From Candidatus Omnitrophota bacterium (GTDB lineage Bacteria; Omnitrophota; Gorgyraeia; Gorgyraeales; Gorgyraeaceae), in contig JBDRJN010000002.1 of NCBI GenBank assembly GCA_043814965.1, positions 39,984 through 103,983 of the forward strand: 64,000 bases of DNA, read 5' to 3'. This document shows, in pieces, positions 11,469 to 47,600 of the stretch (within the stretch, counting starts at the first letter, position 1; the number at the start of each line of letters is the position of its first letter). A program made the translations under genes and the position numbers. The notes under the pieces are model-generated. The model made no database searches and had not been told where the DNA came from. It was given only the letters and a program-made list of their open reading frames with translations.

Positions 11469-11569
11469 TTTATTCCTATCGTGTTCTTAACTGGAGAGGC
11501 TTTTCAAAAAGACGTTCGGCCTATATTGTAATTTGTAAATGTGGGCCTCACCAGTGTTTATATATACTA

Positions 11570-11595: not shown

Positions 11596-11713
11596 TAAAG
11601 AAAAGGTTTAGGCGAGAGCGAAAAAGAAAATAGAGTAACCCTGCACCATACTGGTGCAGGGCACGCTGGTGAAATTTAACGTTCTCGAAAACAGCGCTTG
11701 CCCGCAGACAAGG

Positions 11714-13869: not shown

Positions 13870-13889
13870 ATTTTATTGTAAAGGAAGGA

Positions 13890-30007: not shown

Positions 30008-30040
30008 GGTCACAGGTAATGTATTGTGACCCTTTTTTAT
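30008..30040 (+). terminator. Rho-independent terminator of the giant gene
   Basis: ggtcaca (30008-30014) pairs with tgtgacc (30025-30031), followed by TTTTTT (30033-30038). It lies 26 nt after stop 29982. Confidence 0.6.
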
Positions 30041-30057
30041 TGTGTTATAATATCTCC

Positions 30058-31572
30058 ATGAAGATCATACCTATATTTATCCCGCATGCAGGGTGTCCAT
30101 ATAAGTGTATATATTGTGACCAGAATAAGATCTCAGGCGCAGTGAGGCTTCCTTCAAAAAAAGAGGTCCAATCTATAATAGATGAGAGGCTAAAAACCAT
30201 CCCAAAAGAAGAAGTAAAAGAAATAGCGTTCTTCGGCGGCACGTTCACATCTTTACCTAATAAATTACAAGAGGAATATCTGAGGATAGCCCACTCATAT
30301 GTGAAAAAAGGCGTAGTTGATTCTATTCGCATGTCTACCCACCCTGAATCAGTAACTAAGGAATCCATGAAAAGATTTAAAAGATACGGAGGAAGATTAG
30401 TAGAGCTTGGCATACAATCCCTGGATAAAAAGGTCTTAAAAAGTATTAAAAGAGAAGTAGATCTTAAGAATGTTAAAGATGCAGTTGAGATCATAAAGAG
30501 TTCAGGGCTTAAATTAGGGGTGCAGGTGATGCTGGGCCTTCCAGGAGATACACTTAAAAGGTCTATTGATACAGCCAAGAGACTTGTAAGATTCAAGCCA
30601 GAGACAGCCCGCATATATCCAGCGCTTGTCATAGAAGGGACAGAGTTAGCTGGTTTATATAAGAAAAGAAAATATAAACCAATGGCCTTAAAAAGAGCTA
30701 TAGAAGAAGCAAGTGTTATAACAGATATCTTTGAAAAGAATAAAGTAAAGGTTATCCGTATTGGCCTTCATCCTTCAAGGGACTTGGAATCAAAAGAGAC
30801 TTTGTTAGCCGGGCCGTACCATGTGAATTTTGGGAGTTTAGTGCGTTCTAGGATCATGCAAAATAAAACTAGAGATGTCAAAAAGGACATTGCTTTAATA
30901 GACCCACGGATGCCGAGGAAAGCCAAAGAAAAACTTAAGTGCCTAAATTTTAATTTAATCGAAGTACCATTGCATAAAAGGCTTCAAAAACCTATTAAAG
31001 GTCATACTGATATGATGATCTTTAAGTACAATAAAACTGTGGTATATGAACCGAGACTTGAAAAGATAGCAAGGATCTTGAGGCTAAATGGATATAAATG
31101 CATAAAGGGAGATGAGATCTTATCAGGTAGATACCCCAAAGATATAATCTATAATGCATGCAGTGTTGGTAGAGCGATAATCCATTATAAAGGTGATATT
31201 GATAAGCATATAAAATCTTTGAAAGCAGGGCATATACTGGTTAATCAGGGATATGCAAAATGCTCTATAGTGCCTGTAGATAATAAGCGCATTATTACAT
31301 CTGATACAGGTATAGCTAATGCTTGGACTAAAAAACGCGGGATGTCTCTACTCGTAAAGCCTGGGCATGTGAAGCTGCCTGGATATAAGGCTGGATTTAT
31401 AGGAGGCGCAACAGGAGTGACAGATAAGACAGTGTTTTTTGTAGGTAGACTAGATACTCACCCAGATTCTAGAAAGATAAGGAGTTTTATCAAAAAATCA
31501 GGCAAAAGCATAGTAGAGCTCTACGAGGGCCCGTTATATGATGTAGGGAGTGTAGTATTTTTTGATTGCTGA
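30058..31572 (+). CDS. Radical SAM protein with a C-terminal 250-aa domain of unknown function
   Basis: IPHAGCPYKCIYCDQ (CxxxCxxC), with the glycine-rich FFGGTFTSLP. Start moved to ATG 30058 because 30019 lies inside the upstream terminator. Confidence 0.75.
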   Translation: MKIIPIFIPHAGCPYKCIYCDQNKISGAVRLPSKKEVQSIIDERLKTIPKEEVKEIAFFGGTFTSLPNKLQEEYLRIAHSYVKKGVVDSIRMSTHPESVTKESMKRFKRYGGRLVELGIQSLDKKVLKSIKREVDLKNVKDAVEIIKSSGLKLGVQVMLGLPGDTLKRSIDTAKRLVRFKPETARIYPALVIEGTELAGLYKKRKYKPMALKRAIEEASVITDIFEKNKVKVIRIGLHPSRDLESKETLLAGPYHVNFGSLVRSRIMQNKTRDVKKDIALIDPRMPRKAKEKLKCLNFNLIEVPLHKRLQKPIKGHTDMMIFKYNKTVVYEPRLEKIARILRLNGYKCIKGDEILSGRYPKDIIYNACSVGRAIIHYKGDIDKHIKSLKAGHILVNQGYAKCSIVPVDNKRIITSDTGIANAWTKKRGMSLLVKPGHVKLPGYKAGFIGGATGVTDKTVFFVGRLDTHPDSRKIRSFIKKSGKSIVELYEGPLYDVGSVVFFDC

Positions 31573-31715: not shown

Positions 31716-32681
31716 ATGAAAATAAGCGATTTTTTAAAGAAAAATTTCAAGCATTTCAATGCAAGAGCGCTTATAGATGCTTCAGATAGCTATATAGAGC
31801 ACCTCGACAAGGGTGGCAAGATGCTTCTAGCAATGGCAGGAGCTATGAGTACAGCTGAGCTTGGGATAAGCCTTGCTGAGATGATAAGGCAGGACAAGAT
31901 CCATGCTGTATGTACTACTGGAGCGAACCTTGAAGAGGACATATTTAACCTTGTCGCGCACTCTCACTATAAAGTCATACCTAATTATAGGGACCTTTCT
32001 CCAGAGGACGAGCTCAAACTTCGCAAAAAAGGCCTCAACAGAGTGACAGATACCTGCATACCCGAAGAAGAGGCAATACGAAGGATCGAGGGTAAGATCC
32101 TCCCTTTGTGGGAAGAAGCCAGTAAAAATAATAAGAGATATTTTCCCTATGAATATTTTTATGAACTTATACGTAAAGATGAATTAAAGGAGTTTTATGA
32201 GATAGATCCTTTGGACAGTTGGGTAGTGGCTGCATCTAAAAAGAATATCCCTATATTTACTCCTGGGTGGGAAGACTCTACTTTAGGCAATGTTATAGTA
32301 GGACATCTTAAAAAAGGCGTTTTTAAGGGCCTTGGTTTTATAAAAAGCGGCTTGGAACAGATGTCGTATCTAGTGGACTGGTATCTTGAGAACACAAAGT
32401 GCTCTTCTATAGGGTTCTTTCAGATAGGAGGAGGGATCGCAGGTGACTTTCCTATATGCGTAGTGCCTCTTATAAGGCAGGACCTCGGAAAAGACTGTCC
32501 TCTCTGGGGATATTTTTGCCAGATAAGTGACTCTACCACATCCTATGGCTCCTATAGCGGGGCAGTGCCTAATGAAAAGATCACTTGGGAGAAGCTCGGA
32601 TTAGACACACCAAAGTTTTTAATAGAATCAGATGCCAGCATTGTAGCGCCTCTTATGTTCCAATATATCCTGGAAAAGTAA
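31716..32681 (+). CDS. Deoxyhypusine synthase-like protein
   Basis: MSTAELGISLAEMIRQDKIHAVCTTGANLEED and overall DHS-like layout. 321 aa. Confidence 0.65.
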   Translation: MKISDFLKKNFKHFNARALIDASDSYIEHLDKGGKMLLAMAGAMSTAELGISLAEMIRQDKIHAVCTTGANLEEDIFNLVAHSHYKVIPNYRDLSPEDELKLRKKGLNRVTDTCIPEEEAIRRIEGKILPLWEEASKNNKRYFPYEYFYELIRKDELKEFYEIDPLDSWVVAASKKNIPIFTPGWEDSTLGNVIVGHLKKGVFKGLGFIKSGLEQMSYLVDWYLENTKCSSIGFFQIGGGIAGDFPICVVPLIRQDLGKDCPLWGYFCQISDSTTSYGSYSGAVPNEKITWEKLGLDTPKFLIESDASIVAPLMFQYILEK

Positions 32682-32682
32682 T

Positions 32683-33549
32683 ATGCCCATTATATTCGGC
32701 GGAAAAGATACTGACTTTACTGCATTCAATCATTCAAAGGCTGTTATCGTGCCTGTTCCTTATGGAAAGACTGTAAGTTATAAGAAAGGCACAGAGCACG
32801 GGCCTCTTGCAATATTAAAGGCCTCGGATAACCTGGAGCTTTTTGATGAGGAATTAAACCTTGAAACATATAAATTCGGTATAGCTACACTTCCTTTTTT
32901 AAAGGTAGGAGGGCTTAAACCTGAAAAGATGATATCTCGAGTAGAAAAGAACGTATCAAAGGTTCTTGAAAAAGAAAAGTTTCCTATAGTGATAGGAGGA
33001 GAACACTCTGTTACTATCGGGGCTATAAAGGCTGTCAGAAAAAAACACAGTGATTTTTCAGTACTATATTTTGACGCGCACAGCGATTTAAGGGATAGTT
33101 ACAATCACTCAAAGTACAATCATGCGTGTGTAGCAAGAAGGATATTGGAGTATGCTGGTATAGTTGAGGTTGGCATAAGAAGCTTTAGTAAGGAAGAGAA
33201 TGATTTTTCTGTAGAAAATAAGCTTAATGTCATAAAGATGTTGGATGTATTGGAAGATAAAGACATAAAAAATTCTATAAAAAGAGGCTTAAAGCAAAAA
33301 GTATATATCAGTATAGACCTTGATGTATTTGATCCAAGTATCATGCCGTCGGTCGGCACTCCTGAGCCAGGCGGGATGAGCTGGTATGGTTTTTTAAATA
33401 TATTAAAGGAAGTAATAAAAGAAAAACACATAGTCGGGTTTGACGTAGTAGAGCTTTGCCCTACAAGGAACATGGTGAGGTCTGATTTTTTTGCAGCTAA
33501 ACTTATATATAAAACGCTCGGCTACATCTTTTCCAAAAAGGAGAGTTGA
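32683..33549 (+). CDS. speB: Agmatinase (arginase/ureohydrolase family)
   Basis: Mn-ligand motifs GGEHS, FDAHSDL and SIDLDVFDP. Confidence 0.75.
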   Translation: MPIIFGGKDTDFTAFNHSKAVIVPVPYGKTVSYKKGTEHGPLAILKASDNLELFDEELNLETYKFGIATLPFLKVGGLKPEKMISRVEKNVSKVLEKEKFPIVIGGEHSVTIGAIKAVRKKHSDFSVLYFDAHSDLRDSYNHSKYNHACVARRILEYAGIVEVGIRSFSKEENDFSVENKLNVIKMLDVLEDKDIKNSIKRGLKQKVYISIDLDVFDPSIMPSVGTPEPGGMSWYGFLNILKEVIKEKHIVGFDVVELCPTRNMVRSDFFAAKLIYKTLGYIFSKKES

Positions 33550-33552
33550 TAT

Positions 33553-34098
33553 ATGCTGGTACCGACCAAGGTATTCTTGACAAAAGGCGTTGGCTCAAAT
33601 AAAGAAGAGCTCAGGTCATTTGAGCTTGCATTGAGGGATGCTGGTATAGAAAAATGCAATCTTGTAGAAGGTTCTGGCATACTTCCTCCAGGATGCAAGA
33701 TAATATCTAAAAATGAAGGCATAAAGGAACTTAAACCAGGCATGATAACTTTTGCGGTTGTCTCCCGCTGTGCAAGCAATGAACCGAGGAGGCTTATAGC
33801 TGCTTCAATTGGCCTGGCAAAGCCAGCTGATGATGCTGCTTATGGATACCTTTCACAGAACTATGCATATGGCCAGACAGATGAAGTAGCAGGGGACTAT
33901 GCAGAGGATATGGCGGCTTGCATGCTTGCCTCTAGTCTCGGCATAGAATTTGACGAGGAAAAATCCTGGGACGAAAAAAAGGAATTTTTTAAAATAAATG
34001 AACAGATCATAAGGACCAGCAATATCACTCAATCTACTATTATAGGCAATAATGGCTGGTATTCGACTGTTATTGCAGCAGCAGTATTTATCTTCTAA
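33553..34098 (+). CDS. pdaD: Pyruvoyl-dependent arginine decarboxylase
   Basis: MLVPTKVFLTKGVG..LVEGSGILPPG is PdaD-like. 181 aa. Confidence 0.7.
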   Translation: MLVPTKVFLTKGVGSNKEELRSFELALRDAGIEKCNLVEGSGILPPGCKIISKNEGIKELKPGMITFAVVSRCASNEPRRLIAASIGLAKPADDAAYGYLSQNYAYGQTDEVAGDYAEDMAACMLASSLGIEFDEEKSWDEKKEFFKINEQIIRTSNITQSTIIGNNGWYSTVIAAAVFIF

Positions 34099-34695: not shown

Positions 34696-35666
34696 ATCTA
34701 GTTTTTTTGATAGTAGTGGTCTTATTTTTCTCAGGTATATGTTCCATGGTAGAAGCAGCTATCCTGAGCCTGCCTTTAGTAAGGGCAAGGATGCTTTTTG
34801 ACCAAAAACGTAAAGGCTCAAAAGACCTGCTTTTTATAAAGGAAAATATCCATGTAGCTGTTGCTACAGTAGTAGTCCTTAATAATTCTATAAATATTAT
34901 AGGTTCTATTTTTGTAGGACAGCGTGTTACAAGGATCTTTGGAAATGAATGGCTTGGGATGTCCTCAGCCATACTTACATTTTTGATAATAGTCCTTGCA
35001 GAGGTGATCCCTAAGACCATAGGTGAGCATTATAAGATAGCTATATCTTTGATGAGCGCCAAGCCATTGAGAGGCGTAACATGGGCCCTAAAGCCTTTCA
35101 TAAGATTACTTATACTCACAGCCACTATTTTTAAAGGTAAAGTAGCTGTCCCTAAGGTAACTGAAGAAGAGATAAAGGCTATGCTTAAACTGGGCAGGGA
35201 CTCAGGTACTGTAGAAGTGGATGAGGAGAACCTTTGCAACAAGGTCTTTAAGCTTAATGATGTAAAAGCCCATCATATCATGAAACCAATCGACAAGATC
35301 TATGCATTGCCAGTTGAGAGCAAACTAGTAGACATAAAAGACTCTATATTGGATTCGCAGTATAGCAGGATCGCTGTATATGATAAGGATACATCCAATA
35401 TTGTAGGCACAACTCAGCAAAGGGTCCTTTTAAGGGAGATCGCAAAGGATAATTATGAGGCAAAGGTAAAAGATTTTATGACCAGGCCGATATTTGTAAA
35501 TGAGTTTGAAAAGGCAGATGACCTTCTCAGTAAATTCCAGGCTTACCACCAGCACCTTTTTATAGTAAGGAATAAGGACAATAAGAATATCGGTATAGTA
35601 TCCATGGAAGATGTCTTAGAAGAGCTATTCGGAGAGATATACGACGAAAAGGATAAAGTTACCTAA
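34689..35666 (+). CDS. CNNM/DUF21 transmembrane domain plus CBS-pair protein (CorC/HlyC-like)
   Basis: 4 N-terminal TM helices followed by two CBS-like segments. Overlaps maf by 7 nt. Confidence 0.7.
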   Translation: MLNLVFLIVVVLFFSGICSMVEAAILSLPLVRARMLFDQKRKGSKDLLFIKENIHVAVATVVVLNNSINIIGSIFVGQRVTRIFGNEWLGMSSAILTFLIIVLAEVIPKTIGEHYKIAISLMSAKPLRGVTWALKPFIRLLILTATIFKGKVAVPKVTEEEIKAMLKLGRDSGTVEVDEENLCNKVFKLNDVKAHHIMKPIDKIYALPVESKLVDIKDSILDSQYSRIAVYDKDTSNIVGTTQQRVLLREIAKDNYEAKVKDFMTRPIFVNEFEKADDLLSKFQAYHQHLFIVRNKDNKNIGIVSMEDVLEELFGEIYDEKDKVT

Positions 35667-36250
35667 TCTAAGAGTATTGCTTTTTTGATCTTCAAAGAAG
35701 CCTCTTTACTTACCAGCATCTCAACTATTTTTAGTGAAAATAAGATTGCTGTAGCAGGCCCCTGGCTTGTTATAATATTTCCATCTACAACAACAGCTTC
35801 ATTTTTATATGAGGTATCTTTATTAAAAGTATCCTCCATCCCGGGATAGCACGTTGCTCTTTTACCATTGAGTACTCCCAGCGGCGCGAGTACTACTGCG
35901 GGCGAGGCGCAGATCGCAGCGATAAGTTTTTCTTTTTTGTACATATTTTCTATCAATAAGGTTACTTTATCTGACCTGGAAAGATTTGTTGCGCCAGGCA
36001 TACCGCCAGGCAGTATCAATGCGTCAAAATCATCTCCTGCGCCGCTCAGTTTTTTATCAGCCAAGATCACTGTGTTACGCGATGCCTTGACCTTTATATC
36101 CCCTATGCTGGCTACAGTAAGGCCTATACCAGCTCTTCTTAAGATATCTATGACACTTACTGCCTCTATGTCTTCAAACCCCTCTGCAAGTATTATAATA
36201 GCTTTTTTATTCATAACCTTATTATAGTATAGAAACGTTTTCTGAGTCAA
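35663..36250 (-). CDS. DJ-1/PfpI family protein
   Basis: AIIILAEGFEDIEAVSVIDILRRAG with a nucleophile-elbow AICASP. Confidence 0.75.
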   Translation of the reverse strand: MTQKTFLYYNKVMNKKAIIILAEGFEDIEAVSVIDILRRAGIGLTVASIGDIKVKASRNTVILADKKLSGAGDDFDALILPGGMPGATNLSRSDKVTLLIENMYKKEKLIAAICASPAVVLAPLGVLNGKRATCYPGMEDTFNKDTSYKNEAVVVDGNIITSQGPATAILFSLKIVEMLVSKEASLKIKKAILLD

Positions 36251-36359
36251 TCGGGAAACAGTTTAGACAAGGTTGTATTTTTAAGGATTATAGGGTAAAC
36301 TTCTTCTATTAAACGTGTTATATGCTATATTTATCTTATTATAATATATAGAAAGGGTT

Positions 36360-36626
36360 ATGGTTGTGCAAAAGGCTTCCGATAAAGAGCTAAAACAAAG
36401 ATTACTTAATTTACTGGCAGATATCGCAAGAATGGATGTTAACGACATAGATGAAAATGCCAGCATAAGAGATGATCTCGGCTTAGACTCCGTATCTTCC
36501 GTAGAGATACTTGCCGCTGTAGAAACGAGACTTGATATAAATATAGATGAAGCAAAGGCTATGGATGTTGTCTCAGTTAAAGATCTGATAAATTTAGTAT
36601 TTGCTACACTGAAAGAAAAGACATGA
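36360..36626 (+). CDS. Acyl carrier protein-like (stand-alone)
   Basis: DLGLDSVSSVEILAAVETRLDINIDE matches the phosphopantetheine-attachment pattern (DSL/DSV). 88 aa. Confidence 0.65.
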   Translation: MVVQKASDKELKQRLLNLLADIARMDVNDIDENASIRDDLGLDSVSSVEILAAVETRLDINIDEAKAMDVVSVKDLINLVFATLKEKT

Positions 36627-37939
36627 AACTCGCTTTGATTTCTCCCAAAGGCAAAATCAGTAACAATCCCGCTTTTATAGATTTTTGGAACAGTTCAAAA
36701 GACATAGATTTCTATCGTAACCATTTTACAGGCTCCAGTTCAGGATTATTGATAATGGCATCTTTAACTCCCAAAGATTGGGAGATAGATCTTATAGATG
36801 AGAATCTTGAAGATATAAATTTCGATAAGGATTATGATCTTATTGGATTAGGTTCTATGACTCAACAGGCAACCAGGGCTTATGAAATAGCAGATAAATT
36901 TAGAAAAAAGGGCAGCAAAGTAGTGATGGGAGGAATACATGCTACTGTTTTATTCGAAGAAGCTAAGGAACATGTAGATAGCGTAGTGATTGGAGAAGGG
37001 GAAGAGATATGGCCTAACGTATTGTCCGATTTTATAGATAATAAATTAAAACCATACTATAAATCAGAAAGTTTTTTTGATTTAACTAAATCTCCTATTC
37101 CTAGATACGATTTATTAGATCCCAATAAATATAAAACAATATGGATACAGACTACGCGGGGATGCCCTATAGATTGTGAATTCTGCTGCGCTTCCAATGT
37201 ATATGGATCTAAATTTAGATACAAGACTGTTAATCAGATAGTAAAAGAACTAGAGAAGATAAAATCTATTTGGGGGAGAAAGGCATTGATCAATTTTGCA
37301 GATGACAATATGTTTGTTAATAAGAAATTTTCCAGTGAATTGATAGCAGAAATAAAAAGATTAAAGATAAGATGGTTTGCGCAGACAGATATATCTGTCT
37401 CTGATGATGAGGATTTTTTGACACTTCTTAAAGATAGTGGTTGTGCTATATTATTCGTAGGATTCGAAAGTCTTAATTATGACAATTTCAAGACTATGAA
37501 TAAGAGCAATAAGAAAGCAAAATATTTTAAAGATTATTCAAAGATTATTGCAAAAATACAAAGACACGGCATTGGTATAATGGGAAGTTTTATAGTAGGA
37601 TTTGATGGGGATGATGTGTCGGTTTTTGATAAGACAGCTAATTTTATAATAGAAAACGATTTATTTGCTACGCAGGCTACGGTGTTGACTCCTTTACCAG
37701 GCACAAGACTGCAAAAACGGCTTTCAAAGGAAAATAGGTTAATTGTTTCTAAATGGGATAATTATACATTTACGAATGTTAATTTTAAGCCAAATAAAAT
37801 GTCCATAAGTGAATTGGAAAAAGGATTATTGAATATTTATAAGAAAGTATATTCTCGAGAAGTCACTCTTAAAAAGACCCAATATTTTAGAAAGATATAT
37901 ATCGACTTGGAAAGGCAGAAGATAGATAGAGGTATTTAA
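36623..37939 (+). CDS. B12-binding (class B) radical SAM enzyme
   Basis: N-terminal B12-binding-like region. TRGCPIDCEFCCAS (CxxxCxxC). Overlaps the ACP stop by 4 nt. Confidence 0.8.
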   Translation: MKLALISPKGKISNNPAFIDFWNSSKDIDFYRNHFTGSSSGLLIMASLTPKDWEIDLIDENLEDINFDKDYDLIGLGSMTQQATRAYEIADKFRKKGSKVVMGGIHATVLFEEAKEHVDSVVIGEGEEIWPNVLSDFIDNKLKPYYKSESFFDLTKSPIPRYDLLDPNKYKTIWIQTTRGCPIDCEFCCASNVYGSKFRYKTVNQIVKELEKIKSIWGRKALINFADDNMFVNKKFSSELIAEIKRLKIRWFAQTDISVSDDEDFLTLLKDSGCAILFVGFESLNYDNFKTMNKSNKKAKYFKDYSKIIAKIQRHGIGIMGSFIVGFDGDDVSVFDKTANFIIENDLFATQATVLTPLPGTRLQKRLSKENRLIVSKWDNYTFTNVNFKPNKMSISELEKGLLNIYKKVYSREVTLKKTQYFRKIYIDLERQKIDRGI

Positions 37940-37940
37940 G

Positions 37941-40124
37941 ATGAATTTATACGCAGTCCCTCTTTTACTGGCTGGTCTTTTAATGTTTTTGAATGGTCTT
38001 TTTATATTCTGGAACAATAAAAAATCCGAAGTCAACATTGCTTTTGCATTATTTAATCTATCCTGCACTATATGGCTTTTTGGGTACTCTTCTGTTTATT
38101 ATTTTGCAAAGACAGAAGAAGTAGCGCTTAATCTGGTAAAATTTCTTTATATAGGTGTATTGTTTATTCCTAGTACTTTCTATCATTTTAATATAAAATT
38201 TTTGAAGATAGAGAGAAAGAAGATTTATATAAAACTTTTTTATTTGGCAAGTTTTGTGCTTGTAGGGTTGCTTTATGCAACACCTTATGTAATCTCAGGC
38301 GTATATAAGTATTTTTGGGGATATTATGCAAAGGGCTCTTTTTTACATACGTTATATCTGGGGCTTTTAGGTTTTTCTGTTTTTAGATGCTTATTTCTTT
38401 TATATGTAAATTCTGAAGCAAAAAAACAAAAAGAGCCTCTTGAATCTTTAAGAATAAAGTATATTTTCTGGGCTTTTACCATAGGGTTTATGGGCGGTTT
38501 TCAGGATTTTGTACCAAATTATGGTATTATAGAATTTTATCCATTAGGCTCTATATTTGTAGCTATAGCAGCATCTGTTATTGCCTACACTATAATACAT
38601 TTGCACCTACTTGATATTAAACTAGTTTTTACCCGAGCCGGGATATTAACTCTAGTATATGCTCTTGTATTAGGCATTCCTTTTGGATTAGGAGCATTTA
38701 TAAACAAGGCTGAAGTTTATAGACTGTGGTTTTTACCAATGATATTAATGGCTGTTTTAGCTACAGCAGGCCCTTTTATATACCGCCGCTTACAGCAGAA
38801 AGCAGAAGATATATTATTAGCCAAGCAGAAACACTACCAAAGGCTCCTTCTCCAGGCAGGAGAAGGGATGGTAAGAGAGCATAACTTAGATAAGCTCCTT
38901 AACTTAATAGTGCATATTGTAAAAAAGGCAGTAAAAATTAAGTTTGCAGCTATATTTTTTCATGATAAAGCTAATAAGGCCTATACGCTAAAGGCTGTAA
39001 GAGACCATAAGGCCATTTCTCCTGATATAGCCTTAAAGGAAGATTCTTCTCTGATAAAATATATTAAGATAAGAGAAGGCCCTTTTCTCTCTGAAGAGAT
39101 GCCTTATGGTCTAAGGAAGCCACTGCAGGAGAAATTAAACTCTTCTTTTGATTTAATCGTCCCTTCTCTTATTGAAGACAGGATGTTAGGGTTCTTGATC
39201 CTGGGCCAAAAACTGAATAAGACTACTTATACCCAGGATGACATAAATGTATTTAATATCCTTTCTCATCAGACAGCCTTAGCTGTAGATTACTGTGTGT
39301 TCTTAGAAGAATTCAAAAAGAGCCAGCAAAGACTTTTCACCGCTGAAAAACTAGCTTCTATCGGAGGCATGGCATCAGGAGTAGCTCATCAGATAAGGAA
39401 CCGTTTAGGAGTATTCAGCGCCCATGCAGGAACGCAGGAGCTCGAGATACAGGATTTTATTGAAAAGCACCCTGATCTTATAATCAAGTACCCTGATCTT
39501 AAAAAAACCTTTGACCGCCTGATAGAAGAGGCAGGAGATATACAAGATAATGTCCAGAGAGCAGGTAAGCTCATAAAAGGTATTTTAGATTTTGCAGGCA
39601 CACAGGAAAGGGAGATATCTTTTTCATTTTTCCCTTTACAGGAGACTATAGATCTTTCAATATCTCCTCTTAGAGCAAAACATTCTATATCCGATGATTT
39701 CCCATTAGAGATAAGGACTGAAAACACTAATACTATTATTTATGCGTCCAAAGGACAGATGGCTGAAGTAATATTTAACTTTATAGATAATAGCTATGAA
39801 GCTATTATGGAGAAGATAAATCTTTGCTTGAATGAAGATGAGAAGGCAGCATTTAAGCCTTTTATTGAAATAAAGCTAAAAGAGACAGAAGCCTCTTTTA
39901 TAATCCAGATTTCAGACAATGGGATTGGCATGAAAGAAGAGGATAAATTAAGGATATTCTCGCCTTATTTTACTACAAAGATCTCTACCATATCAGGCAC
40001 AGGCATTGGCATGTTTGTAGTAAAAAGGATAATAGAGGAAAATCATAGAGGCAAAATATGGTTTGAATCTACATATATGAAAGGAACAACTTTCTTTATA
40101 GAGCTTCCTAAAAAGAAAGGATAA
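37941..40124 (+). CDS. Membrane sensor histidine kinase (multi-TM sensor, GAF-like, HisKA, HATPase_c)
   Basis: About 8 N-terminal TM helices. H-box ASGVAHQIRNRLGV. ATPase motifs ISDNGIGM and GTGIGM. Confidence 0.75.
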   Translation: MNLYAVPLLLAGLLMFLNGLFIFWNNKKSEVNIAFALFNLSCTIWLFGYSSVYYFAKTEEVALNLVKFLYIGVLFIPSTFYHFNIKFLKIERKKIYIKLFYLASFVLVGLLYATPYVISGVYKYFWGYYAKGSFLHTLYLGLLGFSVFRCLFLLYVNSEAKKQKEPLESLRIKYIFWAFTIGFMGGFQDFVPNYGIIEFYPLGSIFVAIAASVIAYTIIHLHLLDIKLVFTRAGILTLVYALVLGIPFGLGAFINKAEVYRLWFLPMILMAVLATAGPFIYRRLQQKAEDILLAKQKHYQRLLLQAGEGMVREHNLDKLLNLIVHIVKKAVKIKFAAIFFHDKANKAYTLKAVRDHKAISPDIALKEDSSLIKYIKIREGPFLSEEMPYGLRKPLQEKLNSSFDLIVPSLIEDRMLGFLILGQKLNKTTYTQDDINVFNILSHQTALAVDYCVFLEEFKKSQQRLFTAEKLASIGGMASGVAHQIRNRLGVFSAHAGTQELEIQDFIEKHPDLIIKYPDLKKTFDRLIEEAGDIQDNVQRAGKLIKGILDFAGTQEREISFSFFPLQETIDLSISPLRAKHSISDDFPLEIRTENTNTIIYASKGQMAEVIFNFIDNSYEAIMEKINLCLNEDEKAAFKPFIEIKLKETEASFIIQISDNGIGMKEEDKLRIFSPYFTTKISTISGTGIGMFVVKRIIEENHRGKIWFESTYMKGTTFFIELPKKKG

Positions 40125-40128
40125 TTTA

Positions 40129-40494
40129 ATGAAGGCTATTTTAATTGTTGATGATGAAAAAGAATTAATAGGGTATCTTTCCATGTTTATAGAAAGAAAA
40201 GGTTTTAAAGCCTTAACTGCTTCTACAGGAGAAAAAGGAATAGAACTCTATAAAGAAAATCTGCCAATCTGCGTATTTTTAGATCTGCATCTTCCCAAGA
40301 TGGACGGCATTACTGTATTGAAGAAAATAAAAGAAATAAACCCTGATCCATGCGTTTATCTAGTTACAGGGGATGACAGCCCTGAACTTCGCCAAAAAGG
40401 AGAACAGCTTGGGATAAAAGGTTATCTCTTGAAACCTTTAGATATAAGAATTATTATAAAGATACTGGATGACCTGAAAAAAGAAGGAGTTTAG
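40129..40494 (+). CDS. Single-domain response regulator (receiver only)
   Basis: ILIVDDE..DLHLPKMDG..K receiver motifs. 121 aa. Confidence 0.75.
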   Translation: MKAILIVDDEKELIGYLSMFIERKGFKALTASTGEKGIELYKENLPICVFLDLHLPKMDGITVLKKIKEINPDPCVYLVTGDDSPELRQKGEQLGIKGYLLKPLDIRIIIKILDDLKKEGV

Positions 40495-40498
40495 CTTT

Positions 40499-40759
40499 AT
40501 GAAAGAAATAAGGATGGGTTTTCATGATCTGGCTAATAAACTTAATAAGGTCTCTATTGAAGGAGGCTCAGTCGTAGAGATCGCCAAACTAAAAGATATT
40601 GATAAGATGAGTCCTGAAGAGCTAAAGAAAGAGCTTAAAAAAGCTCTTGATACCCTTTCTAACGCAGTAGACTATGCCCTCGAAGCAGGAACGCTTCTAA
40701 GTAACCTTAAAAAGACTATCTATAAAGAGTTTAATATAGATACAACAGAATCCATATAA
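40499..40759 (+). CDS. Hypothetical protein
   Basis: 86-aa ORF tightly following the RR. No recognisable family. Confidence 0.35.
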   Translation: MKEIRMGFHDLANKLNKVSIEGGSVVEIAKLKDIDKMSPEELKKELKKALDTLSNAVDYALEAGTLLSNLKKTIYKEFNIDTTESI

Positions 40760-40787
40760 TAGGACTTTAACCAGAAAGGACTAACTC

Positions 40788-41075
40788 ATGGCAGGCTTAT
40801 TTTTTAAAAGACGCAAGGCTAAACCGGTAGATGAAGATGTCTTTATTAAAGTAAGGTCCATTCTTGCTAAACAAGCTAACATACATGAAGATAAAATTAC
40901 TCTTGAGACAAGATTAATCGATGATATGAATATTGACTCACTCCAGAGTATAAAGCTTGTTATAGAGCTTGAAGAAGTTTTTGATATAGAGATACCGGAT
41001 GAGGATGCTGAGAAGGCGCTCACAGTAAGAGACATTGATTCCTATATAACCGCCAAACTTAAAGAACAGAAGTAA
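40788..41075 (+). CDS. Acyl carrier protein-like (second stand-alone copy)
   Basis: DMNIDSLQSIKLVIELEEVFDIEIPDEDAE matches the ACP helix II-III pattern. Confidence 0.6.
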   Translation: MAGLFFKRRKAKPVDEDVFIKVRSILAKQANIHEDKITLETRLIDDMNIDSLQSIKLVIELEEVFDIEIPDEDAEKALTVRDIDSYITAKLKEQK

Positions 41076-41170: not shown

Positions 41171-41199
41171 TTGACATGGTACGAATTTATGTTAATATA
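41171..41199 (+). promoter_or_regulatory. Candidate sigma-70 promoter of pflBA
   Basis: TTGACA (41171-41176), 16-17 nt spacer, TAATAT/AATATA (41193-41199). This would give a leader of about 200 nt. Confidence 0.45.
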
Positions 41200-41311
41200 A
41201 AGATACAAAATTAAATATCCCGCGCAACTGGTGTCTTACATGGGAAACCATGAGGAAGCGCGTAAAAAATAAACGGTAAATCGTCCACCTGGGTTTTATA
41301 ACCCGGGTTTT

Positions 41312-41405: not shown

Positions 41406-43616
41406 ATGTTTACAAGAGGAAGATGGGACAAGACGATCGATGTAAGGGATTTTATCAATCGTAATTACACTCCTTATGACGGAGACAGTTCTTTTTTGAA
41501 AGGCCCTACAGAGCGCACAAAAAGACTCTGGGCAAAATGCCTGGAACTTTTTGAAGAAGAAAGAAAACGCGGCGGAGTCCTGGATATAGATACATCTACT
41601 GTCTCGACCATCGCAAGCCATAAGGCCGGATATATTGATAAAAAACTGGAGATAATAAAGGGCCTGCAGACAGATAAGCCTTTAAAAAGGGCAATAAAAC
41701 CGCTGGGCGGTATAAAGATAGTCGAGAAAGCCTGCAAGGACTATGGGTATAGCCTTGATAAAAAAGTAAAGGATATCTACCTAAAATATAGAAAAACACA
41801 TAATGACGCTGTATTTGATGCTTATACAGAGGATATATTGAGGGCCCGCCGCAATGGCCTTATAACAGGGCTCCCTGACAATTATTCAAGGGGAAGGATA
41901 ATAGGGGACTATAGGAGAGTCGCTCTTTATGGTATAGATAGGTTGATAGATTCCAAGAAAAAATATAAAAGGATACTTGAGGACTATTCTACTAATGAAG
42001 CTCTCCAGCTCAGGGAAGAGATAGCGGATCAGATCACAGCGTTAAATGAAATGAAAGAACTTGGCAGTATCTATGGATTTGATATCTCAAAACCAGCTAA
42101 AGACGCTAAAGAGGCAATACAGTGGACATATTTCGGGTATCTAGCAGCTATAAAAGAGCAGGATGGAGCTGCGATGAGCCTGGGGAGTGTAAGTAATTTC
42201 TTCGATGTATTTGTAGAAAGGGATATCCAGAATCACAGATTGACAGAGGATGAAGCGCAGGAACTGATAGATGATTTTGTGATAAAGCTGAGGCTTGTAA
42301 GGCAGTTAAGGACAAAGGCCTACACTGATATCTTTGCAGGAGATCCTGTATGGGTGACTGAAGCGATAGGAGGCATGACAATAGATGGAAGGCACAAGGT
42401 CACAAAATCATCCTTTAGGTTTTTACAGACCCTCTTCAATCTTGGGCCATCGCCTGAGCCGAATCTAACTATACTTTGGTCAAATAGGCTGCCAGAAAAC
42501 TTTAAGAAATTCTGCAGTTTTACCTCTATAAAGACAAGCTCCATACAGTATGAAAATGACGACCTTATGAGGATGATGGGAGGCGATGACTATAGTATTT
42601 CCTGCTGTGTATCGCTTTTAAAAAATGGGAGCGAGATGCAGTATTTTGGCGCAAGATGCAACCTGGCAAAAGTACTTTTATACGCGCTTAATAGAGGCAG
42701 AGATGAAGTGACTGGCGAAAAAGTAGTCCCTAATATCGCGCCTATCTTATCTGACCCGTTTGATTTTAACGAAGTAAAAGAAAGGTTCCACCAGGTATTG
42801 CGCTGGACCATTAATACTTATGTAGAGGCTCTCAATATAATACACTCTATGCATGATAAATATTATTACGAGAGGGCTCAGATGGCGCTTCTGGACAGTG
42901 AACTTACCAGATATATGGCATTTGGTGTAGCTGGGTTAAGCGTGGCAGCGGATTCCTTGAGCGCGATAAGATACGCAAAAGTAAAACCCGTCAGAAATAA
43001 AAAAGGAGTTGCAATCGACTTTAATGTAAAGGGCGATTTTCCTAAATTCGGCAATGATGATGATAGAGTAGACGGGAGAGCAGTGGATCTCGTGACAAGT
43101 TTTCTGGGAGAATTAAAAAAACACCCTCTTCACAGAAACTCTATACCAGCTATCTCTATACTTACTATAACTTCCAATGTCATGTATGGCAAAAAGACTG
43201 GCGCGACCCCTGACGGAAGAAAAAAGGGCGACCCATTTGCGCCAGGAGCCAGCCCTATGCATGGAAGAGATGAAAACGGCATTATAGCCAGCCTTAATTC
43301 AGTCGCAGGCCTTCCTTATAGCGAGTGCAGGGATGGTATCTCGAACACTTTTACTGTAATACCATCCATATTAGGCAAGCTGGAAGAAGAAAGAATAGAT
43401 AATCTGTCGCATTTACTGGAAGGTTATTTTACAAAAGGCGCTCATCACCTCAATGTAAATGTGATAGACAAAGATACATTAAAAGACGCAATAAAAAATC
43501 CACATAAATACCCTCAGCTTACAATAAGGGTATCAGGATACGCGGTTCACTTCAGTAAATTGTCGTTAGAGCAGCAAAAAGAAGTTCTATCAAGGACATT
43601 CCATGAAAACATGTAA
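41406..43616 (+). CDS. pflB: Pyruvate formate-lyase (formate C-acetyltransferase)
   Basis: 736 aa. C-terminal glycyl-radical motif [11 protein letters not shown]. Overall PFL-like. Confidence 0.9.
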
Positions 43617-44346
43617 AGATCGTGATAATAGTTCAGGAAGGATCCATTCTTTTGAAAGCTTCAGTACGCTGGACGGGCCAGGCATAAGGTATGTTGTATT
43701 TATGCAGGGGTGCCTTGGAAGGTGCATCTATTGCCAGAACCCAGATACCTGGAAACTTAACGCCGGTGATCTATATACGGCTAAAGAGGTGTTCCATAAA
43801 ATAGAAAAGTGTATTCCCTATATGGCTTCATCTAATGGAGGGGTGACGCTTTCAGGCGGAGAGCCGCTGTTACAGCCTGATTTTATAATAGAGCTGTTTA
43901 AGTTGTGCAGGGCTAGTTCTATCCATACTACGATAGACACAAGCGCTTTTTATGCTAAGTCCCTATCCAAAGAAAAACTAGATAAGATAACAGCTCTTAC
44001 TGGCCTATTTATGGTTGATTTAAAAGCCTCTTCTAAAAAACTGCATAAGGATATAACAGGGAGAGAGATGGGAGAAGCAGTCTCTTTTATAGAAGATCTG
44101 GAAGAAAAAAAGAAGCCTTACTGGATCAGGTATGTGCTTGTACCTGGTTTAAATGATTCAGAAAAAGATATATCAGGTTTAAAAGAGATATTAAGTACTC
44201 TTAGATATTGCAAGAATTTTGAGTTCTTGCCATATCACACGCTCGGTAACCACAAGTGGAGCCACCTAGGATTAAAGTATAGACTCAAAGACACCCCGCC
44301 TGCCGCCAAAGAAGACATCAAAAAAGCTGAAAAATTATTAAGTTAA
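43603..44346 (+). CDS. pflA: Pyruvate formate-lyase activating enzyme (radical SAM)
   Basis: [15 protein letters not shown] (CxxxCxxC). Overlaps the pflB stop. Confidence 0.85.
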
Positions 44347-44390: not shown

Positions 44391-45059
44391 ATGAAGGTAC
44401 TTCTTGTGGAAGATGAAAAGAAGATAGCCAGCTTTATCAATAGAGGCCTTAAGGAAGAGCATTATGCCGTAGATATAGCATATGACGGGGAAGAGGGCCT
44501 TTTTTTAGCCAAGGCCAATGTATATGACCTCGTAATACTTGATGTGATGCTTCCAAAAAAAGACGGGATAACATTATGCAGGGAACTTAGGCATAGCAAG
44601 ATTGATGTCCCGATATTGATGCTGACAGCAAAGGACAGGATCATCGATAAGGTCTCCGGATTAGATGCTGGAGCGGATGATTATCTTACAAAGCCTTTTT
44701 CATTTCAGGAGTTTTTAGCCAGGATCAGGTCTTTACTCAGGAGAAAAAGGGATGAAAAGGTAAATCTGCTTAAAGTAGGGGATTTGGAGCTTGACCAATT
44801 GACCCACAAGGTAAAGAGACAGGACAAAGAAATATCGCTTACCAGCAAAGAATACGCTCTCCTCGAGTATCTTATGCTCAATGCTGATCAGATCGTCACC
44901 AGGACAATGATCTCGGAACATGTATGGAATGAAGATTTTGACAGTTTTACCAATGTTATAGATGTCTATGTAAACTATCTTCGGAATAAAATAGATTCTG
45001 ATTTCAAAAAAAAGCTTATCCATACTATCCGCGGCGCAGGGTATATAATAAAAGATTAA
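44391..45059 (+). CDS. OmpR-family response regulator
   Basis: Receiver (MKVLLVEDE..D..K) plus a winged-helix output domain (TIRGAGY). Confidence 0.85.
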   Translation: MKVLLVEDEKKIASFINRGLKEEHYAVDIAYDGEEGLFLAKANVYDLVILDVMLPKKDGITLCRELRHSKIDVPILMLTAKDRIIDKVSGLDAGADDYLTKPFSFQEFLARIRSLLRRKRDEKVNLLKVGDLELDQLTHKVKRQDKEISLTSKEYALLEYLMLNADQIVTRTMISEHVWNEDFDSFTNVIDVYVNYLRNKIDSDFKKKLIHTIRGAGYIIKD

Positions 45060-45060
45060 T

Positions 45061-46551
45061 ATGAAACTAAACTCAGTAAGGTTTAAGATCAGCGTTTTAT
45101 ATGTAGCTATTCTTGGCGTGATCCTAGTTACGTACAGCGCGTTTTTATATCTTTCTTTACACTACACTCTCTATGATGAGCTTGATGATGAGCTTCATGT
45201 AAAGGTCAATGGGATAAATTCTGCCATTAACCTTTACAAAGAAATACTCCCGGATAATAAGGATTCTTTTTTATTTTCAGTTAAAAAGGCTGTTACGCTG
45301 GAAGGTTCTTATCCAGATCAAGGTAAGATGCTTGAGATAGATCAGCTTGAAAGATTGTGGCTTGGTAAAGTAGATATATTCAACCTGAGAGAGGATTTTA
45401 TAGCATTTATGGATCAGGATGGAAAGGTTCTTGTAAACTCCAGACCCACGCCTCCAGACCTTAAAGCCGCCTTTTTAAAAAATTCTAAACTGCTGGACAA
45501 AGATGAAGCGATATATAAAAGTGTAAAACATGACAAAAAAGACCTAAGAGTCATTACAAAGGTATTTATCTATAACGGCAAAAATTATTATATCCATATA
45601 GCCACATCTTTAAAGCCTGTTATACATCTTTTAAGGATAAGACTGGCGCATATCTTGACAAGCATTCCGATAATACTGATAATAGCGAGTTTTATAGGCC
45701 AGCTTTTTGCGACCCGTATCCTTACCCCTGTCCTAGAGATCACTAAGACCGCAGAAAATATTACCCACGAGGACCTTAGCTTGAGAGTAAAAAGCCTTCA
45801 CGCTGACTCTGAGATGAAGTATCTTGTAGATGCTTTTAATGATATGATAGCGCGCCTTGAAAAATCGTTCAAATATATAGCGGAGTTTAGTTCTTACGCA
45901 TCTCATGAGCTGAAGACACCTTTGGCTATAATAAGAGGAGAGTCAGAGGTCGCGCTTAGAAAAGACCGCGATATAGAAGAATATAAAAGGGTCATCAGGA
46001 TAAATATCGAGGAAACAGAAAGGATGCTTAAGCTCATAGAAGACCTCCTTCTCCTTACAAAACTTGATTACAAGCCCGAGGTTTTTAAGTTTGAGAGATT
46101 TGACCTTGTTGGGTTTTTGAAGGAGATATATGAACAGACAGAACTTCTTTCAGGTAAAAAAAATATAGAAGTTACTTTAAGAGGGAGTATAGATAAGCCT
46201 ATTTTTATTAAAGGAGACAGGCTTCACCTGAGGCGGCTTTTTTTTAATCTGATAAGTAATGCAATCAAATTTAGTTTTAAAGACGGGAGAATAGACATCA
46301 GATTAAATAAAGAAGACAAAAAAGCCGTTATATCTATCTCTGACATAGGTATTGGCATAGATAAAGATGATATACCTCACATATTCAACAAGTTCTTCCA
46401 CAAAGACACGTTAAATGAAGATGATACGTCGGGAAATGGGCTTGGCCTGAGCATAGCCCAGTCGATCGTCAATATACACCAGGGATATATTGGAGTTAAG
46501 TCTGTTCCCAACAAGGGCTCCACCTTTACTGTATTTTTACCTATCTTTTGA
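45061..46551 (+). CDS. Sensor histidine kinase (2 TM, HAMP, HisKA, HATPase_c)
   Basis: H-box SHELKTPL. N/G boxes ISNAIKF, DIGIGI and GNGLGLSIA. Confidence 0.8.
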   Translation: MKLNSVRFKISVLYVAILGVILVTYSAFLYLSLHYTLYDELDDELHVKVNGINSAINLYKEILPDNKDSFLFSVKKAVTLEGSYPDQGKMLEIDQLERLWLGKVDIFNLREDFIAFMDQDGKVLVNSRPTPPDLKAAFLKNSKLLDKDEAIYKSVKHDKKDLRVITKVFIYNGKNYYIHIATSLKPVIHLLRIRLAHILTSIPIILIIASFIGQLFATRILTPVLEITKTAENITHEDLSLRVKSLHADSEMKYLVDAFNDMIARLEKSFKYIAEFSSYASHELKTPLAIIRGESEVALRKDRDIEEYKRVIRINIEETERMLKLIEDLLLLTKLDYKPEVFKFERFDLVGFLKEIYEQTELLSGKKNIEVTLRGSIDKPIFIKGDRLHLRRLFFNLISNAIKFSFKDGRIDIRLNKEDKKAVISISDIGIGIDKDDIPHIFNKFFHKDTLNEDDTSGNGLGLSIAQSIVNIHQGYIGVKSVPNKGSTFTVFLPIF

Positions 46552-46647
46552 TCGCCTCCAACATTAGAAAAATTTAATATTGTTCTAATCTTCTTTTAAT
46601 GGTCTTTATGCTAAGCTCTACGCGAGTGATAGAAAGAGAGGGCTTTT

Positions 46648-47010
46648 ATGAAGAAGATACTTGTGGTTGACGACGAAAAAAAGATAAGAAAGATTTATGT
46701 TAAATTGCTGAGCGCAGAAGGGTATGAAGTCGTAGAGTCACTGAATCCAATGCAGGCCAGCGAGATACTTGTCAAGGAGCGTATAGATCTTGTTTTACTT
46801 GATATAAACATGCCAGAGGTCGATGGAAGCGTGCTTTATGATGTAATGCAGCTTTTTCATAAAAAGGTAAAAGTAATAGTCGCCAGTGTATATCCTCTTG
46901 ACGAACAAAAGCACAGGATAAAGGATGCATATGACTATTATGATAAATCAGACGGCAGCGAGATATTGCTTTATAAGATAAAAAAAGCACTTGAGAACGG
47001 GGTTTCTTGA
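46648..47010 (+). CDS. Single-domain response regulator
   Basis: MKKILVVDDE..DINMPEVDG receiver motifs. 120 aa. Confidence 0.7.
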   Translation: MKKILVVDDEKKIRKIYVKLLSAEGYEVVESLNPMQASEILVKERIDLVLLDINMPEVDGSVLYDVMQLFHKKVKVIVASVYPLDEQKHRIKDAYDYYDKSDGSEILLYKIKKALENGVS

Positions 47011-47034
47011 TCTCTAAAAAACTAAGGAGGCGGT

Positions 47035-47586: not shown

Positions 47587-47600
47587 TAAGGAGGAGATGG

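Follow-up and report, generated by a model that had tools for sequence, protein, structure and literature searches.

The 64 kb window analysed here (64,000 nucleotides of contig JBDRJN010000002.1 from a Candidatus Omnitrophota bacterium; all coordinates below are those of the window) carries at 36360-41075 six intact open reading frames (ORFs) on the plus strand. Two of these encode acyl carrier proteins (ACP1 and ACP2), and between them lie the genes for a radical S-adenosylmethionine enzyme with a B12-binding domain (rSAM), a sensor histidine kinase (HK), a single-domain receiver (REC) and a small protein of 86 amino acids (ORF86). Along the order ACP1-rSAM-HK-REC-ORF86-ACP2 the intergenic gaps are -4, 1, 4, 4 and 28 nucleotides (nt), the negative value being an ATGA overlap. 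The ORF coordinates and the Pfam searches agree with an initial annotation, made from the letters alone, as to the six genes, their order, strand and spacing. Gaps of at most 28 nt together with the overlap indicate a single transcript, and the recurrence of the gene order across phyla shows that the arrangement is not due to chance. Our preferred, still tentative, reading of this operon couples a sensor phosphorelay to enzymes that tailor, by radical chemistry, a fatty acyl chain bound to an ACP, the relay being the controlling side. The features of the locus are as follows:

36251-36359, plus strand: leader and presumed promoter region of the operon, an AT-rich intergenic segment divergent from a DJ-1 gene
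36360-36626, plus strand: ACP1 (88 amino acids), putative dedicated carrier protein of the rSAM module (Pfam PP-binding, 2.2e-12; Ser44 in LDSV)
36623-37939, plus strand: rSAM, class-B (B12-binding-domain) radical SAM enzyme of 438 amino acids (Pfam B12-binding, 6e-11; Radical_SAM, 7.8e-19; DUF4070, 2.9e-8)
37941-40124, plus strand: HK, sensor histidine kinase with a polytopic membrane region and a GAF domain (Pfam GAF_2/GAF_3; HATPase_c, 3.5e-20)
40129-40494, plus strand: REC, single-domain receiver of 121 amino acids (Pfam Response_reg, 1.4e-23; Asp52, Lys102)
40499-40759, plus strand: ORF86, candidate His-phosphotransfer protein resembling a DHp (dimerization and histidine phosphotransfer) region (conserved motif, hhalign; no Pfam or NCBIfam family)
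40788-41075, plus strand: ACP2 (95 amino acids), AcpP-like carrier protein (Pfam PP-binding, 1.4e-9; Ser51 in IDSL)
41171-41198, plus strand: promoter-like site at the 3' limit of the operon
41214-41301, plus strand: ZTP/ZMP (pfl motif) riboswitch at the 3' limit of the operon (Rfam RF01750, 43.6 bits for a gathering score of 39)
41287-41308, plus strand: terminator-like hairpin accompanying the riboswitch

On its 5' side the operon is limited by the divergent DJ-1 gene on the minus strand (35663-36250). Its promoter presumably lies in the leader, where a weak sigma-70-like match was detected (36264-36291, 9/12), the count of such sites being no higher than in shuffled sequences. As the scans for promoters and terminators inside the operon also gave results no better than shuffles, its limits are drawn from the spacing of the genes and from the riboswitch that follows downstream. 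The latter and the promoter-like site belong to the gene for pyruvate formate-lyase (41406-43616), which is followed by that for its activase (43603-44346).

ACP1 matches the PP-binding model (PF00550) with 47.5 bits for a cutoff of 20.8, and clearly fails the models of the housekeeping AcpP, with only 35-40 bits against cutoffs of 66 or more. It is the ortholog of the carrier protein found in related cassettes (see below), and shares 50-62% identity with the ACPs that the full operons encode. The ACP1 gene ends within an ATGA junction that includes the start codon of the rSAM gene, and to judge by this overlap the two are translationally coupled. Upon alignment, Ser44 of ACP1 and Ser51 of ACP2 coincide with the serine of all 19 related ACPs, and with Ser36 of the Escherichia coli AcpP; the serine context presumed in the initial annotation is hence present in both carrier proteins, as LDSV and IDSL respectively.

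The rSAM contains the CxxxCxxC motif as C181/C185/C188, which is invariant in 21 orthologs, and scores 68.9 bits against Radical_SAM (cutoff 29.5) and 42.7 bits against B12-binding (PF02310; cutoff 32.1). Its best 120 database matches are all 50-66% identical to it and about 430-450 amino acids long. Assignments to named NCBIfam families were rejected, as the scores for HpnJ (101.5 bits, cutoff 577.6), PhpK (99.9, cutoff 600) and BchE (99.4, cutoff 481) fall far short of the cutoffs, and those for MgmA (TIGR04014; 81.1, cutoff 360), the ladderane family TIGR04072 (68, cutoff 360) and HpnR (66.2, cutoff 650) likewise lie below them. By these comparisons the enzyme is a member of a large clade of proteins of about 435 amino acids that holds no named family and no characterized member. 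A sequence search of solved structures recovered distant matches only. An AlphaFold (AF2) model built from the 21 orthologs (pLDDT 91.8) matched over its full length AprD4, which was the top hit, as well as MgmA, TsrM, CysS and TokK. The solved structures of CysS and TokK contain pantetheinylated substrates, and by analogy provide a precedent for an rSAM that might act on a carrier-linked substrate. AprD4 is a dehydratase that is not known to use cobalamin. As it is the top match, methylation by the rSAM is likely but not assured; and as it has the same domain, the B12-binding domain alone is no proof that the rSAM uses cobalamin. We also considered a role in the maturation of peptides that are made by ribosomes and modified after translation, i.e. 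a pairing of rSAM_ocin_1 (TIGR03975) with ocin_ACP_rel (TIGR04069). This was rejected because the scores are tiny (42.7 bits against 281.85 for the rSAM, 14.4 against 70 for ACP2) and because the neighboring genes in relatives encode lipid enzymes.

HK consists of a polytopic membrane region (residues ~1-285), for which hydropathy predicts about 7-9 hydrophobic segments and no large loop, a GAF domain (~314-450; GAF_3 with 27.6 bits for a cutoff of 27), a DHp region with His483 in the H-box AHQIRNRL, and a catalytic ATPase domain (HATPase_c, 72.9 bits) with N and G boxes (NFIDN at 613, DNGIG at 659, GTGIG at 686). It does not match HisKA_7TM (PF16927) at an E-value of 0.1 or better; its orthologs in two related loci (L001 and L086 in our numbering) do, that in L086 weakly. 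HK is 43% identical to the kinase of L086, an 11-gene operon discussed below, and we refer to this group as the 7TM-GAF kinases. An assignment as the PEP-CTERM kinase PrsK (TIGR02916) was rejected, since the match is confined to the C-terminal part (68.9 bits, cutoff 300) and the partner of HK is a receiver-only protein rather than a sigma-54 regulator. This partner, REC, covers positions 1-110 of the 111 in the Response_reg profile (83.7 bits), with the acidic pair DD at 8-9, Asp52 and Lys102, and has no output domain. Receivers of 120-130 amino acids occupy the same position in the relatives.

ORF86 belongs to no Pfam or NCBIfam family, and does not match the Pfam Hpt model (PF01627). In eight homologs the residues F8, H9, N13, L15, N16 and K17 are invariant, giving the motif F-H-x-x-x-N-x-L-N-K, which mirrors the H-box of the adjacent kinases (SHQFNNRL/AHQIRNRL). 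Profile comparison with hhalign recovered the DHp region of the kinases with 93% probability (E 2.9e-7) and aligned His9 with the histidine of the H-box. The homologs are always encoded after the kinase and its receiver and before further receiver proteins, and are also found in kinase loci devoid of an rSAM (L088, L120, L159 and L164). A single-sequence structural model is all-helical, with low confidence (pLDDT 67). ORF86 is best read as a putative stand-alone His-phosphotransfer protein in a kinase-REC-His-REC relay.

The second carrier protein, ACP2, matches PP-binding with 38.5 bits (cutoff 20.8). It scores above the cutoff of one AcpP model (NF002148; 73.4 bits, cutoff 71) and below that of another (TIGR00517; 66.8 bits, cutoff 70.45), is about 50% identical to ordinary AcpPs of Firmicutes, and has no adjacent fab genes. 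It bears a basic N-terminal extension of 15-20 residues, common to the ACPs embedded in relays. The ACPs that match it best in the fetched loci are some encoded between receiver genes downstream of 7TM-GAF kinases (L158, L154 and L132), together with the ACP domain of a receiver-receiver-ACP-receiver (REC-REC-ACP-REC) fusion in L103. The latter is an in-frame protein of 500 amino acids (L103:8979-10481, plus strand) whose domains were recovered with Pfam. The fusion family comprises 14 clusters, i.e. 12 of the REC-REC-ACP-REC type at 55-94% identity and two of a shorter REC-ACP type (~377 amino acids). Its members (P0171-P0184) come from metagenome contigs of an Omnitrophota-like kind, where HisKA_7TM kinases are encoded beside them (L168 and L169). 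We found no description of such fusions of receivers to ACPs in the literature. The initial annotation had the two ACPs bracketing the rSAM and the two-component system. They do not enclose a single pathway, as ACP1 is the ortholog of the cassette carrier protein and ACP2 matches ACPs that lie among, or are fused to, receivers. ACP2 appears to belong to the signalling half of the operon; this is a minority feature of such loci, and its likeness to AcpP leaves doubt.

To place the operon in context, the rSAM was scanned over one genome per species and the best 80 loci were kept. Genes were called in 86 loci, namely the 80 from the scan, five exact look-ups and the window itself, and labelled by iterated profile searches; the gene calls are greedy longest-ORF calls and the labels stem from seed-based searches. 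Linkage was counted on 82 non-duplicate rSAM-anchored loci (rSAM 38-66% identical), many of which come from related metagenome-assembled genomes (MAGs) of Spirochaetota, and the taxonomy labels of MAGs are uncertain. In 58 of the 82 loci the rSAM gene is directly followed, on the same strand, by that for a kinase, and in 68 a kinase gene is no more than four genes away. At the same distance an ACP is found in 67, an AMP-dependent ligase of the fatty-acid type in 62, a receiver in 56 and an HD-GYP domain in 41. The genes for rSAM and kinase are direct neighbors in MAGs that bear the labels Omnitrophota, "Planctomycetia", Pseudomonadota, Desulfobacula, Spirochaetota, "Eubacteriales", Aminicenantes and Bacteroidales; in Nitrospirota, Fibrobacterota and Myxococcota the kinase is within four genes. 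The rSAM-kinase cassette is present in at least eight phylum-level groups. The linkage is kept despite a reshuffled order of the other genes, and across different kinds of kinase: Omnitrophota-like genomes have the 7TM-GAF type, Spirochaetota a hybrid kinase of the MASE8 type with REC-HD-GYP fused to it, and Bacteroidales the HK-REC type. All partner kinases share an N-terminal polytopic hydrophobic membrane region, as judged by hydropathy. The co-occurrence over the 82 loci bears out the expectation that the arrangement would be conserved in relatives. The embedded two-component system, considered unusual in the initial annotation, is not out of place there: it is the rSAM's most constant partner. 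Moreover, the presence of an ACP in 67 of these loci, the coupling of ACP1 to the rSAM and the pantetheinyl substrates of CysS and TokK make chemistry on a phosphopantetheine-tethered substrate, as proposed at the outset, the best reading of the enzyme pair.

The rSAM loci that lack a kinase are of a different type, with either several rSAM paralogs accompanied by HGD-D/BcrAD proteins or, in Dehalococcoidales, an rSAM-rSAM-ACP arrangement. Five clusters (L068 of Bianquea renquensis, L072 of Lutispora saccharofermentans, L077, L085 and L016) were noted as kinase-less with three to five B12-domain rSAM paralogs, with the exception that in L016 a 7TM-GAF kinase is encoded four to six genes downstream. 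ACPs are present in L068, L077, L085 and L016; in L072, where two rSAMs were seen, the ACP is fused to the AMP ligase. HGD-D/BcrAD-type proteins are encoded in L068, L072 and L077. As two of these multi-rSAM clusters come from cultured Clostridia, they offer a possible experimental entry to the rSAM clade. A separate observation concerns some 40 Spirochaetota loci (e.g. L004:2646-6155), in which the cassette is always headed by a gene for a protein of 1150-1200 amino acids with an N-terminal PilZ domain, a C-terminal methyltransferase domain and about 700 residues in between to which no domain could be assigned.

The closest relative of the operon, L086, has an rSAM with 66% identity and eleven genes in a row, namely those for an HTH_17 protein, a FadL-type outer-membrane channel, an ACP, an AMP ligase, a thioester reductase, the rSAM, a 7TM-GAF kinase, a receiver, an 83-residue ORF (ORF83), a double receiver (REC-REC) and a GAF-HD-GYP protein. 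L087 resembles it, and the same order is encountered in eight to nine metagenome loci. In these relatives the ligase matches a long-chain fatty-acid ligase (339 bits), the channel matches FadL, and the reductase is of the TIGR01746 type, being replaced in some cases by a serine-palmitoyltransferase/BioF-like pyridoxal-phosphate (PLP) enzyme. These accessory genes point to a fatty acid that would be imported, loaded onto the ACP, modified and released. An aminoacyl substrate, which the initial annotation had allowed as an alternative, is disfavoured, since the ligase is of the fatty-acid type and adjoins FadL and the thioester reductase. Searches of the 64 kb window for the missing cassette genes recovered only unrelated HD-GYP paralogs and a second B12-domain rSAM. 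The suggested check for an acyl-ACP ligase and a phosphopantetheinyl transferase came out negative in the window, where neither a ligase nor an AcpS- or Sfp-like gene was found. We treat the operon as a probable functional minimal variant rather than debris, because its six genes are intact and because further Omnitrophota also have the ACP-rSAM-HK form in this short version (L006, L010 and L015).

A reverse scan of metagenomes with the sensor region of the kinase (residues 1-460), of which the best 80 loci were kept (L088-L167), showed an rSAM in only nine and none in the other 71. Contrary to the initial annotation, the kinase is therefore not dedicated to the rSAM. The gene directly upstream of the 7TM-GAF kinase is variable, and almost always encodes an enzyme of a lipid type. 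Counted by cluster size, with each cluster annotated from one representative, it codes for a PilZ-methyltransferase fusion (20), an FAD-dependent amine-oxidase/desaturase-like protein (9), an rSAM (8), a PilZ-thioesterase fusion (7), an aldehyde dehydrogenase (6), an acyl-ACP-reductase-like protein (4), a thioester reductase (3), a ketoacyl synthase (3), an ICMT/PEMT-type methyltransferase (3), an HMG-CoA reductase (2) or an AONS-like protein (2). Among the relatives at large the PilZ domain is fused to methyltransferases, a thioesterase and a FemAB-like enzyme, as well as to the ACP itself (L001, L017 and L019). Given that HD-GYP is the usual output of the relay, this suggests that the relay sets a local level of cyclic di-GMP (c-di-GMP), which acts on the PilZ-bearing enzymes.

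The data show which genes are present and that their catalytic residues are kept, and likewise the orthologies, the conserved linkage, the fatty-acid type of the relatives' accessory genes, the resemblance of ORF86 to a DHp region and the existence of REC-ACP fusions. From this body of evidence we infer the substrate, the reaction, the cue and the direction of control, as well as the loading of ACP1, the final phospho-acceptor and the role of ACP2. The operon would comprise two halves, a lipid-tailoring pair and a membrane-embedded phosphorelay. In the former, a fatty-acyl chain would be held on the phosphopantetheine arm of ACP1, and the rSAM would modify an unactivated carbon of this chain, most likely by C-methylation, with cyclisation, dehydration and C-C coupling as further possibilities. 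In the latter, HK would autophosphorylate at His483 and phosphorylate Asp52 of REC, from which the phosphoryl group may pass to His9 of ORF86 and on to a final acceptor encoded outside the operon. The relay most likely reads a lipid cue or a membrane-borne one and tunes the tailoring reaction. In the relatives this control would be exerted through the HD-GYP c-di-GMP phosphodiesterase and the PilZ domains fused to the enzymes or the ACP, and in the window operon probably through ACP2. The direction from relay to enzymes is preferred because of the PilZ fusions and the REC-ACP fusions. A narrower version, which we regard as doubtful, takes the carrier protein as the very output of the relay, so that phosphorylation of the receiver would gate which ACP or which cargo reaches the rSAM; the ACP is fused to the receiver in the relatives, and here the link would run through ORF86 and a free ACP2.

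Several observations weigh against the coupling of the relay to fatty-acyl tailoring as set out above. Orthologs of the ligase, the reductase, FadL, REC-REC and GAF-HD-GYP are all absent from the 64 kb window, and the operon has no PilZ domain. The top structural match of the rSAM, AprD4, is a B12-domain radical SAM enzyme that acts as a dehydratase and not as a methylase. The similarity of ACP2 to ordinary AcpPs nearly equals that to the relay-embedded ACPs, and a relay-embedded ACP occurs in only four of the 80 kinase-anchored loci. Finally, neither the rSAM clade nor the kinase family has a member known to have been studied, so that analogy is the basis for both the chemistry and the cue.

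The foremost alternative, plausible though clearly less probable, is that of a signal synthase with its cognate receptor, in the manner of quorum sensing: the module would make an exported, modified fatty aldehyde, alcohol or amino-ketone, and the kinase would sense this product, after the pattern of CqsA/CqsS or RpfF/RpfC/RpfG. In its favor, the genes lie side by side in 58 of the 82 loci, and the sensors are membrane-embedded and lack a periplasmic domain. The release enzymes of the relatives, i.e. the thioester reductase or the AONS-like protein, would yield free small lipids; the AONS-like protein matches the model of alpha-hydroxyketone autoinducer synthases, if with 202 bits and hence below the cutoff of 428; and FadL, EamA and RND transporters are encoded within the relatives' loci. 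The HD-GYP outputs fit the Rpf design. One MAG has two cassettes (L006 and L015), and the 7TM-GAF kinases often come as tandem paralogs (L122, L133, L157 and L166). Furthermore, the GAF domain of HK is 32% identical to that of the terminal HD-GYP protein in relatives, which would allow a shared ligand. Nevertheless, the window encodes neither a release enzyme nor an exporter, the kinase family is also found beside lipid enzymes of a housekeeping kind (ketoacyl synthase, HMG-CoA reductase, PEMT/ICMT-type methyltransferase and desaturase-like protein) that would be atypical as signal synthases, and the PilZ and REC-ACP fusions indicate that control flows from the relay to the enzymes. Control by the relay and sensing of the product can also coexist as a closed loop.

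It is improbable that the genes are mere neighbors, with ACP1 and the rSAM forming a lipid or natural-product pair, HK and REC serving other targets, and ACP2 being a housekeeping AcpP. ACP2 does exceed one AcpP subfamily cutoff (73.4 against 71 bits) and is about 50% identical to ordinary AcpPs, the majority of the kinase-family loci (71 of 80) have no rSAM, and the receiver has no output domain that would point at the module. However, the tight spacing and overlap speak for one transcript, and the rSAM-kinase adjacency holds across phyla and kinase architectures. ACP2 itself falls short of the AcpP equivalog cutoff (66.8 against 70.45 bits), carries the relay-type N-terminal extension and lacks a fab context, and fusions of receivers with ACPs do exist. 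Least probable of all, and in our view very unlikely, is a decaying remnant, that is a truncated and non-functional copy of the 11-gene operon. The full form has five genes that are lacking here, no ligase is encoded in the 64 kb, and the G+C content of the operon (0.34-0.35) is slightly lower than in most of the window (0.35-0.42). Against this, all six ORFs are intact with every catalytic residue kept, the spacing leaves no room for pseudogene debris, and the short ACP-rSAM-HK form has been retained in further Omnitrophota.

The window contains further loci of related interest. A second cluster linking an HD-GYP protein to radical SAM enzymes lies at 8366-15278 on the minus strand. It encodes a PAS-PAS-HD-GYP protein (13890-15278), a B12-domain rSAM (12559-13869) with 28% identity to the one studied here, a small rSAM (11714-12562), a DUF362/ferredoxin protein, a phosphorylase-family protein (PNP_UDP_1) and an SPL-like rSAM (8366-9709). 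Another HD-GYP protein, whose N-terminal half has no assigned domain, is encoded at 49911-51203 (minus strand). A second two-component set is found at 44391-48050 (plus strand), where a response-regulator-like ORF of 222 amino acids is accompanied by a putative kinase of 496 amino acids, the latter with C-terminal similarity to HK; a further protein made up of a receiver only (46648-47010; Pfam Response_reg) also belongs to the set, as do two PG_binding_1 proteins. Upstream of the operon, on the plus strand, are a giant ORF of 3811 amino acids (18547-29982) with no Pfam domain at an E-value of 1e-4 or better, and a 517-residue fusion of radical SAM, Radical_SAM_C and DUF6873 (217 bits) domains, an uncharacterized architecture (30019-31572). 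These are followed by a polyamine-type gene run (31716-34098, plus strand), which starts with a deoxyhypusine-synthase-family protein (Pfam DS); the next two ORFs (288 and 181 amino acids) are agmatinase-like and pyruvoyl-dependent arginine decarboxylase-like on reading only.

It is mainly through radical SAM enzymes that anaerobes functionalize inert lipid chains, and the uncharacterized clade of B12-domain rSAMs of about 435 amino acids gains here a testable substrate hypothesis, namely a fatty acyl-ACP. At the same time, one kinase family is seen to be systematically attached to different lipid enzymes, together with parts of the c-di-GMP system such as HD-GYP domains and PilZ fusions. If functional, the link would reveal the means by which uncultured anaerobes perceive and adjust modified lipids, or signal with them, and would furnish new enzymes whose products might be of interest as lipid biomarkers. 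If the carrier protein were indeed the output of the relay, the operon would constitute a post-translational two-component switch of anaerobic lipid modification. On the same condition, the 7TM-GAF kinase family would represent unrecognized circuits of lipid homeostasis or lipid signalling in Omnitrophota and other anaerobes, made up of the kinase, a receiver, a small His-phosphotransfer protein, an HD-GYP protein and PilZ-fused enzymes.

We found no description in the literature of this cassette or of the function of HisKA_7TM kinases. An ACP-rSAM-kinase cassette is likewise not listed in a review from 2026 on radical SAM enzymes that modify lipids (PMC13459092). Comparable in part are the anammox ladderane clusters, where a dedicated ACP (amxACP) and a B12 radical SAM enzyme are encoded side by side, for what is proposed to be a lipid pathway (PMC13459092). 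The window rSAM nonetheless scores far below the ladderane model TIGR04072 (68 against 360 bits), FabF and FabZ paralogs are absent, and the ladderane clusters have not been described with a kinase, unlike the operon studied here. Among characterized enzymes, CysS and TokK/ThnK resemble the rSAM in their three-part fold, in which the radical SAM barrel lies between a Rossmann-type B12 domain and a C-terminal domain of helices; they differ in their low identity (14-16%), their place in antibiotic pathways and their length (620-660 as opposed to ~435 amino acids in the kinase-linked clade).

Parallels to the signalling half are found in several systems. The Spo0F-Spo0B-Spo0A phosphorelay likewise combines a kinase, a single-domain receiver, a small His-phosphotransfer protein (in the relatives a putative one) and further receivers, in the order seen in the relatives. 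In contrast to that relay, ORF86 represents a novel family of about 80 amino acids that resembles the DHp region of the very kinase it accompanies, the relays of the relatives end in an HD-GYP protein and not in a transcription factor, and the window operon has no terminal acceptor. The Rpf system of the diffusible signal factor (DSF), with its ligase RpfB, synthase RpfF, hybrid kinase RpfC and HD-GYP regulator RpfG, is paralleled by the Spirochaetota and Desulfobacula forms, in which a fatty-acid ligase and an enzyme that modifies lipids occur together with a hybrid kinase of the membrane and a REC-HD-GYP regulator. There is, however, no crotonase-type RpfF in the window or the related loci, the constant enzyme being instead the pair of ACP and B12-domain rSAM, and the window operon has neither HD-GYP nor ligase. 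The CqsA/CqsS and LqsA/LqsS pairs of alpha-hydroxyketone autoinducers are paralleled by those loci (L012 and the Bacteroidales loci L081-L084) in which an AONS-family PLP enzyme is encoded beside a polytopic membrane kinase. These AONS-like proteins score only 202 and 92 bits for a cutoff of 428, and no such gene is present in the window; the closest relatives have the thioester reductase instead.

In its logic the explanation preferred here matches the control of membrane fluidity in Bacillus subtilis by DesK/DesR and Des. In this system the gene for a kinase that is embedded in the membrane and lacks an extracellular domain adjoins that for an enzyme modifying acyl chains; the regulator DesR binds DNA, and the desaturase Des depends on O2 and acts on phospholipids. 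The shared principle would be that sensing of the state of the membrane adjusts the tailoring of lipids. The window operon departs from it in that its receiver lacks an output domain and is followed by a candidate His-phosphotransfer protein, with HD-GYP and PilZ as the outputs in relatives, and in that its enzyme is an anaerobic radical SAM enzyme predicted to work with an ACP. The parts of the operon are all of known kinds, and it is their combination that appears to be new.

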